This document shows, one piece after another, positions 4,324 through 9,722 of a stretch of DNA of 64,000 nucleotides. Made by a program: the position numbers and the translations under genes. This DNA comes from a virus (taxonomy: Duplodnaviria; Caudoviricetes). Position 1 is the stretch's first letter; the number at the start of each line of letters is the position of its first letter. Under the pieces are notes generated by a model that saw only the letters and a program-made list of their open reading frames with translations, searched no databases and was not told where the DNA came from. The stretch is from the IMG/VR virus record IMGVR_UViG_3300020578_005808, positions 1 through 64,000 of that record; one strand, written 5' to 3'.

Positions 4324-4327
4324 ACTT

Positions 4328-4357
4328 AAAATATGGAAATATGATAAAAAAAGTCAA
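4328..4357 (-). promoter_or_regulatory. sigma70-type promoter, leaderless (dut)
   Basis: TTGACT-18nt-TATTTT, GTG start 4 nt later. Confidence 0.65.
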
Positions 4358-4365
4358 ACTAAAGT

Positions 4366-4394
4366 TTGCTTTTTTTTAAATTTTATCATTATTG
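4366..4394 (+). promoter_or_regulatory. sigma70-type promoter, leaderless (4400 ORF)
   Basis: TTGCTT begins 34 nt before ATG 4400; AT-rich -10 region (TATCATTATTG). Confidence 0.5.
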
Positions 4395-4399
4395 ATGGT

Positions 4400-4807
4400 A
4401 TGACAATATTAGACGCATATCAAATGTTGAATGAGTTTTTTAACTCAAACCACGTTTTAAACCTTAACCGAGATTTTAAAAAAATTATATCGATTACCGA
4501 AACAGAGCAGGAAGATAGGGCCGCTATACTTTGCGCTCTAAAAGAAATGGAGTCTGGGAATTTAATTAAATCAACTATTGTAAATAATGTTGAGTACTGG
4601 GTTCTTTTTAAACCTCTCGAAAGCTTTTCTCAGCCTATAGAATTAAATTATTTATTGGCTGCTGGTATAGCAAGTGTAATAAATAGAGTCTGCGATGTTC
4701 TTGAAAACGATTCTGACAGATGTAACCCGAAGGAAATAACTGATAAAGATCTAAAAAATCTGATATTTATTGCTTCGAAAGCTTCTGTAGAAAATTTAAA
4801 GAACTAG
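4400..4807 (+). CDS. Hypothetical protein (possible winged-helix)
   Basis: 135-aa ORF; AILCALKEMESGNLIKS...YWVL resembles a wHTH pattern, weak. Confidence 0.7.
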   Translation: MTILDAYQMLNEFFNSNHVLNLNRDFKKIISITETEQEDRAAILCALKEMESGNLIKSTIVNNVEYWVLFKPLESFSQPIELNYLLAAGIASVINRVCDVLENDSDRCNPKEITDKDLKNLIFIASKASVENLKN

Positions 4808-4808
4808 C

Positions 4809-4836
4809 TTGACTTTTAAGGAAAACGGATCATTGT
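4809..4836 (+). promoter_or_regulatory. sigma70-type promoter for the structured RNA
   Basis: TTGACT-16nt-CATTGT; by the spacing seen at other genes the TSS falls at about 4843. Confidence 0.55.
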
Positions 4837-4842
4837 TCTTTA

Positions 4843-5272
4843 CCTAACTTAGCGGGAGGTAGCTTGAGCAAAACCATGCTCACTTAAGCTTTAAATAGCT
4901 TATTTAAACTCGTAAGAGACAACAAGCCCGTAAAAAGACCGCAGGCGGTTGGGGTAATTCCCAGCGTTATTTCGGGAGAAGCGGCGTCCTAAAAAGACCC
5001 CTGCGTAAAAATGCTAGAAACTTCTTCCTCTCAAAGGAAAAGGCGATGGCTGTCAGAAGTAAGTCACCCGCAAACTGAGTTAGAAAAAATAGCCGATCTT
5101 AGTTGCTAGCTACACGGACTCACTAAAGCCGGGGATGCAAGGACTAATGCAGGTAAGATCGGGGTTAAATAAACTGAAATAAAAAACATTTCAGTTGACT
5201 TGCTATTTCTTCTAGCCAGCTCAAGGAAAAGTTAAAGGCGATGGCTGTTTCCGCAAGAAAAAAGGAAACACC
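4843..5272 (+). ncRNA. Candidate large structured ncRNA / cis-regulatory leader of the sigma-factor gene
   Basis: No long ORF; 115/240 G+C in 4921-5160; many helices (TGAGCA/TGCTCA, TTTAAATA/TATTTAAA, CGCAGG/CCTGCG, CCGATCTT/AAGATCGG, AACTGAAAT/ATTTCAGTT), GNRA-type loops GTAA and GGGA; own promoter. Confidence 0.65.
5039..5248 (+). repeat. 15-bp direct repeat AAAGGCGATGGCTGT (5039-5053 and 5234-5248)
   Basis: Exact duplicate seen in sequence; both copies preceded by TCAA(A)GGAA. Confidence 0.9.
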
Positions 5273-5878
5273 ATGAATAAAGTAAAAAAAGAAATTAACG
5301 AATCAAGTCTTATCTCCAAGATTAAAGACTCTAATTGTAACGAAAGTTTTAATAAGCTTTCTAAACTATACGATAATTTTTATTATTCTATAGCTCAAAA
5401 ATATTCTTCCGCTCTTGTTAAGGCGGGTATGAATAAGGATGACATAAAACACGAAAAAGATTTTATTCTTTTTAAAGCTATAAAGTCTTTTGATCCTTCT
5501 CAGAAAACTAAGTTCTCTACTTGGTTTTGCAACTGCACAAAATATCACTTCTTGAACTATATTAATGCTAATAAAAAATATATGTTAACAGAAGAGAACA
5601 AAATAGACTTCTTTAATAATAAAGATATATTAATGTCTTTTGATAAAAATACTGATGTCTTGTCTTATTTGAACTCTCTCCTCTCCTCATTTAAAGATGA
5701 AAGAGTTAAAAAGGTTTATGAACTTAGATATTTTTCTGGTGGTGAAAAGTTGGCTACTTGGAATTCTATAGCGAAAAAGATTGGAGTCAGTACTCAAACA
5801 GCTATTAACCTCCATGAAAAAACAAGAGTTTTTCTTAAAAATAAAATCTTAAGCAAAAATTCTTTTGATTTTGTTTGA
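5273..5878 (+). CDS. Phage-encoded sigma70-family RNA polymerase sigma factor
   Basis: Region 2 FKAIKSFDPSQKTKFSTW and region 4 HTH VYELRYF...TWNSIAKKIGVSTQTAINL. Confidence 0.8.
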   Translation: MNKVKKEINESSLISKIKDSNCNESFNKLSKLYDNFYYSIAQKYSSALVKAGMNKDDIKHEKDFILFKAIKSFDPSQKTKFSTWFCNCTKYHFLNYINANKKYMLTEENKIDFFNNKDILMSFDKNTDVLSYLNSLLSSFKDERVKKVYELRYFSGGEKLATWNSIAKKIGVSTQTAINLHEKTRVFLKNKILSKNSFDFV

Positions 5879-5904
5879 CTTCCACTGGGGCGTTTCCATA
5901 CTGT
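5875..5904 (+). promoter_or_regulatory. sigma70-type promoter, leaderless (5910 ORF)
   Basis: TTGACT-18nt-TACTGT, ATG 5 nt later; -35 overlaps the sigma-factor stop codon. Confidence 0.7.
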
Positions 5905-5909
5905 GCTGA

Positions 5910-6209
5910 ATGAACGACAATAAGAACGACAGCAACTGGACGCGCCGAGAAGTCGGCGCATTGTGGACCAAGCTCAGTAAGGACAAGAGCCAAAAATACA
6001 TGACTGGTCACATTCAGACATCCCTAGAAGGAAAGATTGACATCGTTATCTTTTCTAATAAGGATAAGCGGACTGATAAAGCTCCTGATTTCAGGGTTTA
6101 TCTTTCCGAAAAGAAAAAGGAAGACGTTATTGCTTCACCGAAGACAGAGGCTAAGAATAAAACTCAATCTAGAGAAGAAACCTCTTCTGACGAAGTAGAC
6201 GTTCTTTAA
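5910..6209 (+). CDS. DUF736-like protein, putative ssDNA-binding
   Basis: EVGALWTK...YMTGHI...IVIFSNKDK...PDFRVYLS pattern and acidic C-tail SSDEVDVL. Confidence 0.6.
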   Translation: MNDNKNDSNWTRREVGALWTKLSKDKSQKYMTGHIQTSLEGKIDIVIFSNKDKRTDKAPDFRVYLSEKKKEDVIASPKTEAKNKTQSREETSSDEVDVL

Positions 6210-6231: not shown

Positions 6232-6262
6232 ACCTACCTATAAATAATAGGTAGGTTTTTTT
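6232..6262 (+). terminator. Hairpin plus U-tract (terminator-like) ending at the next ATG
   Basis: Perfect 10-bp stem ACCTACCTAT/ATAGGTAGGT (6232-6241/6247-6256), then TTTTTT and ATG 6263. Confidence 0.65.
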
Positions 6263-7754: not shown

Positions 7755-9722
7755 ATGACAATTCTTTCTAAAGATTTCGTAAATAGCTATAAAAATAAGC
7801 AGCCCAACTGGGGTTTTAATGGGTTAGGTTATATTGTATATAAAAGAACTTATGCTAGACTTAAAGATGACGGAGCTACTGAAGAATGGCACGAAACAAT
7901 AGAAAGATGTATAAACGGAGCCCAAAAAATTGGAGCAGATTATACACAAGAAGAAGCTGAAAAGTTATTTGATCTTGCATTTAATCTTAAATGCAATTTT
8001 GCAGGAAGAATGTTGTGGCAGTTGGGTACTAGTACTGTAGACAGATTTGGCGCTAATTCTCTTTTAAATTGCTGGTTTACCAGCATGAAAGAACCAAAGG
8101 CATTTTTATTTTTGTTTGAAAATTTAATGCTGGGTGGAGGAGTGGGCTATAGCATTCGAAGAGAGGATGTTATGGAATTACCCAAGATTAAAACTGGAGT
8201 TAACATAACTCATCAGCAAACTAAAGACGCTGATTTTATTGTTCCAGATTCAAGAGAGGGATGGGTAAAACTTTTAGAAAATCTACTGACTGCATTTTTT
8301 CAAACAGGTAAAAGTTTTTCTTACAGCACTATCTTAATCAGAGGCGCTGGAGAAAAGATAAATGGATTTGGAGGAAAAGCAAGTGGATCTGCTATTTTGG
8401 TTGATGGTATTAATAAAATTACAAACGTATTTCACTCTAGAGAGGGTAAAAAATTTCGTTCTATTGATGTACTTGATATTTGCAATATTATTGGAAGCAT
8501 TGTGGTTGCTGGCAATGTGAGAAGATCTGCTGAAATTGCTTTAGGGGATCCGGACGACATTCTTTATCTACGGGCTAAAAATTGGAATACAGGAAATGTT
8601 CCAAATTGGCGAGCAATGTCTAATAATACTTTATATGTAGATGACTATTCTCATTTGCTCGATGAATTCTGGACTAACGGATACGAGATTAATAAGGATA
8701 CTGGATTTGCAAATGGAGAGCCTTATGGATTTTTTAACTTACCTCTTTCTCAAAAGTATGGGCGACTAAAGGATGGTCCGATCAAAAATTCAGATCTATA
8801 TCCTACTAATATAGATAATGTCGTAGGCACAAATCCTTGTGGTGAAATTAGTCTTTCTGATTATGAATGCTGTAACCTTTGCGAACTATATTTAAATAAT
8901 ATTGAATCTAAAGAAGAACTCATAGAGTCCGCTAAATTACTTTATAAAACTCAAAAAGCTATTGCAGCACTACCATTCTTACATGAAGAAACAAATAACA
9001 TTGTTCACAAAAACATGCGCCTCGGTCTTGGGGTTACTGGTATTTGCCAGTCTCTTGATAAGCTTGATTGGCTTGATGACTGTTATGTTGCTCTTCGGAA
9101 GTTTGATAAATTATGGAGCAAGCAAAAAGGATGGCCTAGAAGCATTAAATTAACTACAATTAAGCCATCTGGAACATTGAGTTTATTAGGTGGAGCTACG
9201 CCCGGAGTACACCCGGCTTATTCTAAATATTACATGAGGACTGTAAGAATGAGCAGTGACGACAGGCTCGTTCAAATTTGTAGGGATTTAGGTTATCATA
9301 CCGAATTCTTATTAAACTTTGATGGTACAGAAAATCGGGATACTATTGTTGTGTATTTCCCATGCGAAACTCCGGATGGAGCTATTTTAGCCGATGATAT
9401 GGGCGTTATTAAACAGTTAGACATGGTCAAGACATTACAAGATGTGTGGAGTGATAATGCTGTATCTGTTACTGCTTACTATTCTCCTGAAGAACTAGAT
9501 GCATTAAAGAGTTGGCTTAAAGAGAACTATAAAAACAATATAAAGAGTGTTAGTTTCCTACTTAGACAAAAACATGGTTTTAAGCAAGCTCCATACCAAG
9601 AAATAACAAAAGAAGCTTATGAATTAGCAAAGTCTAAAGTAAAGCCTCTATCAAATATTAATATAACAGGAGAAACTTTGCAAGGACTAGAATGCGAAGG
9701 TGGAGTTTGCCCTATAAGGTAA
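7755..9722 (+). CDS. nrdJ: Class II (adenosylcobalamin-dependent) ribonucleotide reductase, monomeric RTPR type
   Basis: SLLNCWF, TNPCGEI, ECCNL, TTIKPSGT, C-terminal CEGGVCPIR; no beta-subunit gene nearby. Confidence 0.93.
   Translation: MTILSKDFVNSYKNKQPNWGFNGLGYIVYKRTYARLKDDGATEEWHETIERCINGAQKIGADYTQEEAEKLFDLAFNLKCNFAGRMLWQLGTSTVDRFGANSLLNCWFTSMKEPKAFLFLFENLMLGGGVGYSIRREDVMELPKIKTGVNITHQQTKDADFIVPDSREGWVKLLENLLTAFFQTGKSFSYSTILIRGAGEKINGFGGKASGSAILVDGINKITNVFHSREGKKFRSIDVLDICNIIGSIVVAGNVRRSAEIALGDPDDILYLRAKNWNTGNVPNWRAMSNNTLYVDDYSHLLDEFWTNGYEINKDTGFANGEPYGFFNLPLSQKYGRLKDGPIKNSDLYPTNIDNVVGTNPCGEISLSDYECCNLCELYLNNIESKEELIESAKLLYKTQKAIAALPFLHEETNNIVHKNMRLGLGVTGICQSLDKLDWLDDCYVALRKFDKLWSKQKGWPRSIKLTTIKPSGTLSLLGGATPGVHPAYSKYYMRTVRMSSDDRLVQICRDLGYHTEFLLNFDGTENRDTIVVYFPCETPDGAILADDMGVIKQLDMVKTLQDVWSDNAVSVTAYYSPEELDALKSWLKENYKNNIKSVSFLLRQKHGFKQAPYQEITKEAYELAKSKVKPLSNINITGETLQGLECEGGVCPIR

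Follow-up and report, generated by a model that had tools for sequence, protein, structure and literature searches.

Which kind of element occupies the 465 bases in front of the sigma factor gene in the Caudoviricetes record IMGVR_UViG_3300020578_005808 (IMG/VR), of which positions 1 to 64,000 were analysed here (referred to as the window)? A reading made from the sequence alone (the sequence-only reading) had proposed an undescribed class of phage non-coding RNA or an elaborate regulatory leader, and the absence of any match to a known family together with strong covariation supports this proposal. We confirm that positions 4843-5272 of the plus strand encode a genuine structured RNA, in agreement with the original observation, all named helices of which are literally present in the sequence. 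The RNA of about 400 bases is described by no known RNA family and is widespread in uncultured aquatic phages, and its probable task is to control the operon of the phage's own sigma factor. As a family it is new, with the caveat that the role of a leader would be a familiar kind of role.

4808-5272: gap before the sigma gene, 465 bases, between an open reading frame (ORF) of 135 amino acids (aa) and the sigma gene
4843-5272 (+): whole RNA, composed of domain 1, domain 2 and a 3' module, with covariation and 75-82% nucleotide identity in close relatives

The gap has stop codons in six of six frames. Its GC fraction is 0.437 over positions 4843-5272 and 0.465 over positions 4850-5165, compared with 0.315 for the whole window, which agrees with the GC-rich core described earlier (about 48% versus about 30%). 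The same description had named it the longest non-coding gap; in a crude map based only on ATG-started ORFs of at least 70 aa it is the third-longest uncovered stretch, both longer ones containing small ORFs or the GTG-started dUTPase gene.

Homologues of the RNA were found in more than 150 loci from IMG/VR and from marine and freshwater metagenomes. A search with the sigma protein yielded nine IMG/VR loci whose upstream gaps share 75-82% nucleotide identity with that of the window over 400-470 nucleotides (nt), and a 19-nt pattern from the gap retrieved 24 true loci and one chance match. An alignment-based search with the sigma protein reached sigma genes with only 33-44% protein identity to that of the window, and an nhmmer profile of the gap located the element upstream of all but one of these distant genes. 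With a 25-nt pattern from the conserved junction, at least 118 loci were recovered from marine and freshwater metagenome contigs, and the element is present in 118 of the 118 listed; the same pattern gave no match in 185,579 prokaryote genomes, one per species. Neither blastn with three variants of the RNA nor tblastn with the sigma protein produced a match among the 50,697 deposited phage genomes of INPHARED. The element is single-copy in a relative of 174.5 kb (100% complete) and in another of 127.6 kb (84% complete).

Clustering at 92% identity reduced the homologues to 45 representatives, and in the alignment of these non-redundant sequences (A3) a total of 33 pairs was counted within six helices that align well by column. 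At these pairs 95.8% of the cells are paired, compared with 75.3% in shuffled alignments and 35-38% with slid partners. Double changes occur in 24 of the 33 pairs (320 cells observed, 99 shuffled), and the covariation score amounts to 0.593, compared with 0.22 for shuffled and 0.08-0.125 for slid partners. Covariation among homologues, the lack of which had been named beforehand as evidence against a structured RNA, is thus strong. RNAalifold on A3 predicted 26 pairs, 21 of them with double changes, including one long-range helix (alignment columns 149-152 / 528-531); a mutual-information scan combined with a stack finder independently returned the same helix and a second long-range one, so that both inter-domain helices, termed PK1 and PK2, were found de novo. 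For helices that MAFFT cannot align by column, we compared the duplex energy of cognate strands with that of permuted or non-cognate strands, and clade-wise RNAalifold gave the same architecture, built from different sequences, in six clades.

Single-sequence folding cannot assign the strand, since its z scores are -2.96 for the plus strand and -3.69 for the minus strand. Because many G-U pairs occur in the covarying helices (UG 31, UG 31, GU 25, GU 23 and UG 34 at five pairs), we assigned the structure to the plus strand. This pattern, together with a conserved upstream -35 element and a fixed orientation, points to a plus-strand RNA and not to a DNA element, the possibility that the sequence-only reading had raised against itself.

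The elements of the fold are, in window coordinates:

4844-4856 (+): 5' strand of P1, which encloses domain 1, tested as cognate versus permuted duplex
4865-4882 (+): hairpin UGAGCA/UGCUCA, an insertion of the freshwater clade that is absent in marine clades
4885-4902 (+): hairpin P2, UAAGCU/AGCUUA, which forms with differing sequences in all clades examined
4905-4939 (+): junction AAAC.CGU.AGAGAC-NN-CA(A/G)GCCCGUAAAAAGAC, the most conserved part, mostly unpaired, with invariant columns
4920-4923 with 5194-5197 (+): PK1, CAAC/GUUG, from domain 1 to domain 2, 100% paired in the 45 sequences
4940-5005 (+): three-way junction of P3 (4940-4945/5000-5005), P3a (4950-4953/4960-4963) and P3b (4964-4968/4983-4987)
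5009-5053 (+): module A, with a 5' strand containing UGCUAG (5012-5017), an inner hairpin UUCCU/AGGAA (5025-5029/5035-5039) and box 1, AAAGGCGAUGGCUGU (5039-5053)
5062-5066 with 5141-5145 (+): PK2, AGUCA/GGACU, which joins domains 1 and 2, 98% paired
5067-5083 (+): 3' strand of P1, the partner of 4844-4856
5093-5106 with 5149-5162 (+): P6, the main stem of domain 2, with inner pairs G5109-C5138 and C5110-G5137
5115-5117 with 5129-5131 (+): hairpin P6b, inside domain 2
5174-5194 (+): hairpin P7, CUGAAAU/AUUUCAG, which varies in sequence and length
5199-5248 (+): module B, with a 5' strand containing UGCUAU (5201-5206), the loop CUCAAGGAAAAG and box 2, AAAGGCGAUGGCUGU (5234-5248)

P1 pairs over 8 bp (4844-4851/5076-5083) and a further 5 bp (4852-4856/5067-5071), and its cognate duplex reaches -16.7 kcal/mol compared with -11.0 kcal/mol for permuted strands (standard deviation 0.48), with 0 of 1000 permutations as good. 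The corresponding energies are -8.5 (cognate) and -3.65 kcal/mol (non-cognate) for P3, which exists in more than 20 sequence variants, -6.3 and -4.6 kcal/mol (permuted) for P6b and -3.4 and -1.4 kcal/mol (permuted) for P7, again with 0 of 1000 permutations as good for the latter two. P3a and P3b are 95-98% paired, with double changes, and the main stem of domain 2 comprises 13 pairs, 11 of which are doubly changed. The variable pairs of PK1 are AU in 25 and CG in 20 sequences, and AU in 28, UA in 13 and GC in 3, respectively, and relatives carry CCUC/GAGG, CCAC/GUGG, CAUC/GAUG or CAGC/GCUG at this position. PK2 alternates between AGUCC/GGACU and AGUCA/UGACU in relatives (CG 27, AU 11), and its last pair is an A-G mismatch in the window itself. 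Because PK1 and PK2 covary over a long range, we conclude that domains 1 and 2 form one compact fold. The 5' strand of PK1 lies within the nearly invariant 35-nt junction, and long A-rich stretches of the RNA are likewise invariant and unpaired.

Compared with the helices listed in the sequence-only reading, CGCAGG/CCTGCG (P3), TGGGG..CCCA (P3a), CCGATCTT/AAGATCGG (P6) and ACTGAAAT/ATTTCAG (P7) are confirmed by covariation. TGAGCA/TGCTCA has compensatory variants by eye (GAGCG/CGCUC, GACCG/CGGUU), but only within the freshwater clade, and TTCCT/AGGAA, the inner hairpin of module A, occurs in relatives but does not separate from permuted controls. TTTAAATA/TATTTAAA turned out to be mis-registered, the conserved helix being UAAGCU/AGCUUA (4885-4890 with 4897-4902), and TACCT/AGGTA, GTC/GAC, CTC-GTAA-GAG and TTC-GGGA-GAA are not conserved or ambiguous. 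The long P1 and both inter-domain helices were absent from that list. A further candidate, AAUAGC/GCUAUU closing domain 2, was rejected because of uncompensated one-sided changes in four sequences, seen by eye (L128, L178, L103, L104).

Does the RNA belong to a known family? None of the 4227 models of Rfam 15, which include GOLLD, ROOL, HEARO, OLE, raiA, riboswitches, T-box, 6S, RNase P, signal recognition particle (SRP) RNA, group I/II introns and small ribozymes, matched at the gathering score in the 64-kb window; within positions 4808-5272 there was no match at E<=10, and there was none at E<=1 in 15 diverse homologue loci. ARAGORN detected no tRNA or tmRNA in the window and none at the element in 26 homologue loci. 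Two look-alikes to tmRNA did not survive testing, namely CGUAAAAAG(A)CCGC, which resembles the PK1 region of the E. coli tmRNA, and ..GAUAGUC of marine boxes, similar to AAUAGUC before the resume codon. We rejected a tmRNA on the basis of the missing ARAGORN and Rfam matches, a tRNA-like domain not being detected and no tag reading frame being conserved. An intron was rejected as well, since the ORFs on both sides are separate genes, the 135-aa ORF terminating at its own stop codon (4805-4807) ahead of a promoter-like element, and since the gene downstream is sigma in some lineages and a P-loop gene in others; for a group I intron core, no Rfam intron model matched, a result that refers to Rfam only, the models of which may have weak sensitivity. 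Full-text literature searches found no description of this RNA. A 2023 catalogue of 8,495 candidate RNAs from IMG/VR does not mention sigma factors in its text (PMC10690425), and the motif may sit unnamed among these candidates.

The RNA resembles GOLLD, ROOL, HEARO, OLE and raiA in its length of several hundred nt, its multi-domain covarying fold and its long conserved unpaired stretches, but it matches none of the Rfam models of these families. Like the GOLLD/ROOL group, it was found by comparative metagenome analysis, on phage DNA and with no function assigned; unlike them, it does not lie beside tRNA genes, is fixed at the head of a sigma operon and carries twin-box modules.

The box AAAGGCGATGGCTGT is present at 5039-5053 and again at 5234-5248, and an exact repeat of 10-18 nt (at least 12 in all but two) is found at the same two places in 41 of the 45 representatives. 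Within a genome the two boxes share one sequence, which changes from lineage to lineage; there are at least 12 variants, among them AAAGGCAAAUGGUGGA, AAAGCUGAUAGUC, AAAGGAUAAGCAGUCA, GGAAGGAAGAAGUUAAAA, AAAGCUGGCAGUUC and AAAAGACUAGUGGUC. The 64-kb window and the complete 174.5-kb relative each contain the box just twice, and the opposite strand lacks it; this rules out the box as a genome-wide promoter, operator or target of a small RNA. Each box provides the 3' strand of its stem-loop module, with (CU)GCUA in the 5' strand and CUCAA(A)GGAAAAG within the loop, and modules A and B fold alike in the 22 lineages examined. A complementarity scan suggested two candidate partners of the box, CUGCUAUUGCU behind PK1 and UGCUAG of module A, but the energies of cognate and non-cognate strands did not differ significantly. 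Since the module strands are interchangeable, two nested topologies are possible, a1:b1 with a2:b2 or a1:b2 with b1:a2, and a need for both topologies would, as a hypothesis, explain why the boxes are identical.

The position of the RNA within its locus is given by the following neighbours:

4400-4807 (+): upstream gene, 135 aa, stop at 4805-4807; a homologue adjoins the RNA in 31 of the 39 loci whose flank is long enough
4809-4837 (+): promoter-like element, -35 TTGACT (4809-4814), 17-nt spacer and a weak -10-like ATTGTT (4832-4837)
5273-5878 (+): sigma factor gene, 201 aa, Pfam Sigma70_r2 (1.1e-06), PHROG 351
5910-6209 (+): DUF736-like gene, 99 aa, after sigma in the window and in marine relatives

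The position of the promoter-like element makes an RNA start near 4843 likely. A promoter of its own (4809-4836) had been claimed for the RNA before, and the -35 part of this claim stands: TTGAC is found within 170 nt upstream in 38 of 44 non-redundant representatives, in nearly all of these 38 at a lineage-typical distance of -83 to -116 from an internal anchor. The -10 part is weak, and a strict consensus promoter scan did not call the element at 4809-4837. Outward-facing TTGACT boxes lie at 4328-4357 (-) and 4809-4814 (+), starting from the spacer at 4324-4399 and from the end of the 135-aa gene, which suggests divergent early transcription units, one towards the dUTPase on the minus strand and one with the winged-helix gene, the RNA and sigma on the plus strand.

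In 79 of 92 loci the sigma gene comes next after the RNA or is separated from it by a single gene. The freshwater clade, to which the window belongs, has sigma immediately behind the RNA. The large marine clades have the order RNA, P-loop gene of about 210 aa, sigma and DUF736-like gene, and here the 3' module of the RNA precedes the P-loop gene and not sigma. This gene (L107:5946-6599, with equivalents in L098, L159, L110 and L126) often overlaps the start of sigma and has a weak match to Pfam DNMK, a deoxynucleoside monophosphate (dNMP) kinase family (E = 1e-05, below the cut-off). The 135-aa upstream protein belongs to no Pfam or PHROG family. Its AlphaFold2 model (pLDDT, the predicted local distance difference test, 88.7) has a predicted N-terminal winged helix and a helical C-terminal part, and Foldseek gave weak winged-helix matches (best E = 0.039), to SSV1 F-112 and to repressors of the MecI/BlaI type; judged from this model, the protein could be a regulator of the locus or a partner of the RNA. 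In the marine clade M1 (L102, L140, L165, L085) the upstream neighbour is a long ORF on the opposite strand, which is not a homologue of the 135-aa gene. In the divergent relative L014/L059 (IMGVR_UViG_3300027754_004594) the gap extends to 845 nt, with the core of the RNA kept, an extra insertion and degenerate boxes; as a possible natural uncoupled variant, this locus may help to separate a leader from a stand-alone RNA.

Three further observations concern the surrounding DNA. The 5' part of the DUF736-like gene is GC-rich (0.44-0.50 at 5850-6050, in a genome of 31.5% GC), and a terminator-like hairpin at 6232-6256 appears to end the unit of RNA, sigma and DUF736-like gene. The class II ribonucleotide reductase encoded at 7755-9722 (+) has its best match among deposited phages in the Maribacter phage Panino (49.6% identity), which is the sole, weak hint at the relatives or the host of this phage.

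How would such an RNA act on the operon behind it? In most of 34 representatives the next ORF begins 20-60 nt after box 2, irrespective of whether this ORF is sigma or the P-loop gene. A structured conserved domain thus stands upstream of an ORF and behind a conserved -35 element, the generic arrangement of a riboswitch leader. In the window, box 2 overlaps a further hairpin:

5242-5273 (+): hairpin UGG(C)UGUUUCC/GGAAACACCA, 5242-5252 with 5264-5273, present in the minimum free energy fold

This hairpin, the 5' arm of which starts within box 2, covers the Shine-Dalgarno sequence AGGA of sigma (5263-5266) and the A of the AUG. The close sub-clade retains it, L037 and L187 having one additional, compensating U-A pair. 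In clade M1, box 2 and the 7 nt behind it form a perfect hairpin of 7-8 bp, and a GC hairpin and a U run lie between this hairpin and sigma (UAAUUUUUU after the GC hairpin in L102), so that the 3' end looks like an attenuator ahead of sigma. Riboswitches usually combine a conserved sensor with variable expression platforms, and the large conserved core with lineage-specific 3' ends near the start of the operon reads as the layout of a sensing leader.

We therefore favour, with a probability of roughly 55%, a cis-acting leader that sets the expression of the sigma operon via alternative pairing of the boxes. The RNA would be the 5' leader of an early operon, comprising sigma in the window and a dNMP-kinase-like gene followed by sigma in many marine relatives, and would act as the sensor of a signal, which might be a metabolite, an ion, a protein or an RNA. 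The folded core would select box 1 or box 2 as the partner of the shared 5' strands (..GCUA..). In the window, a free box 2 would pair with 5264-5273 and hide the ribosome-binding site of sigma, whereas pairing of box 2 with its own 5' strand (5199-5211) would leave this site open; in one marine clade, a terminator-like hairpin would take the same position instead. Like riboswitches and T-box leaders, the RNA lies behind a promoter and before an ORF, has a conserved core with a lineage-specific 3' end and contains sequences that could pair in mutually exclusive ways. Unlike them, it matches no known aptamer or T-box model, shows no identified ligand- or tRNA-binding features and is far from the next gene in some lineages.

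Several observations weigh against a leader of this kind. The conserved part of about 350-400 nt is far larger than known riboswitch aptamers, the core being about twice the size of the largest ones, and we can name no ligand for the proposed sensor. The pairing of the box with its 5' strand is not better than with non-cognate strands (-8.8 versus -9.1 kcal/mol, permutation p about 0.11-0.13) and is weak in the window itself (-7.8 kcal/mol). The Shine-Dalgarno hairpin is restricted to one sub-clade, and other freshwater members have different downstream hairpins. In addition, sigma in L014/L059 begins about 280 nt beyond the RNA, with a promoter-like sequence in between, a 345-nt spacer follows the RNA in L181, and TTGACT-17-TAnnnT lies between the element and the next ORF in L119, L092 and L126. 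Such long spacers and internal promoter-like sequences fit a discrete RNA gene.

The RNA could be free-standing and act in trans, possibly as a ribozyme or as part of a ribonucleoprotein (RNP), being made early and merely kept beside sigma, with the twin boxes as two sites for one partner or reaction, for example processing at both. We take this explanation seriously, at well under even odds. Besides the spacers of 280-345 nt, the promoter-like sequences or the terminator-like hairpin that some lineages have ahead of the next ORF, it would account for the size, the two inter-domain pseudoknots and the invariant unpaired A-rich stretches, which recall ribozymes and large phage RNAs (a likeness drawn partly from general knowledge). 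With 56-81% nucleotide identity compared with 61-82% aa identity of sigma, the RNA is also at least as conserved as its neighbours, and the conserved 135-aa protein could be its partner, although this protein resembles, weakly, a DNA-binding winged helix. The 3' end, however, is difficult to reconcile with a free-standing RNA, as in most lineages the distance from the end of box 2 to the next start codon is 20-60 nt, with no terminator between, and the 3' module overlaps the ribosome-binding site of sigma in the window; moreover, Rfam 15 detected no catalytic motif of a known ribozyme family in the window and in 15 homologue loci. A more far-reaching reading, in which the RNA would be a giant catalytic or ligand-sensing class by which large uncultured aquatic phages decide at infection on their own sigma factor through a two-module strand-exchange switch, appears doubtful to us, and we know of no described precedent for such a switch or for a ribozyme acting at both boxes.

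The identity of the boxes within a genome and their divergence between lineages could also reflect a translational operator, to both boxes of which a phage or host protein binds and represses or activates translation, with the boxes co-evolving with this protein. Candidate binders would be the adjacent winged-helix protein of 135 aa, sigma itself or a ribosomal protein; we consider such an operator improbable. The confinement of the boxes to this locus, the conserved winged-helix gene beside the RNA and the result of the search for an RNA partner co-varying with the boxes, which found none, are compatible with this idea. There is a certain likeness to the T4 gene 32 pseudoknot and to the RegA and gp43 operators, which are likewise phage leader RNAs at the ribosome-binding site of an early or regulatory gene, and autoregulation by a phage protein is possible for the RNA of the window; these operators comprise tens of nt, in contrast to about 400 nt with two pseudoknots and no known binding protein here. 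Binding of a protein would leave a core of 350 nt with its pseudoknots unexplained, and M1 keeps the twin boxes although the upstream ORF in the four M1 representatives examined is non-homologous and on the opposite strand. That the region is no RNA at all, but a DNA element such as an origin, a packaging site or an operator array, or an overlooked coding region, is very improbable. The minus strand does fold as well as the plus strand in the single-sequence test, and in the freshwater clade short AUG-started frames begin in both boxes. Yet, read from the other strand, the covarying G-U pairs would become C-A mismatches, compensatory pairs over a long range would be meaningless in duplex DNA, all frames contain stops, and indels among the homologues are not multiples of three. 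The frames starting in the boxes vary from 3 to 29 codons, one being fused to sigma and one truncated to 4 codons, and an AUG is missing from the marine boxes; neither a protein-coding or micro-ORF reading of the gap nor a conserved upstream ORF with translational coupling from the box AUG agrees with frames that are not conserved.

Few structured RNAs of about 400 nt show several long-range contacts that covary, and GOLLD, ROOL, OLE, ribozymes and the T-box each opened a line of work. The RNA described here is common in marine and freshwater viral metagenomes, with no match in the cultured phages and prokaryote genomes searched, and its internal duplication into modules A and B is an unexplained feature of a new RNA family. 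Its size and more than 100 natural variants make it suited to cryo-electron microscopy, and the boxes, identical within genomes and diverging between lineages, pose a puzzle that is testable by compensatory mutations. If the RNA is a ribozyme or an RNP scaffold, it would add a new class. Its place in the operon of the phage's own sigma factor is a switch point of the phage transcription programme, and an RNA that works there as a sensor would reveal which quantity the phage measures on infection before taking over transcription.

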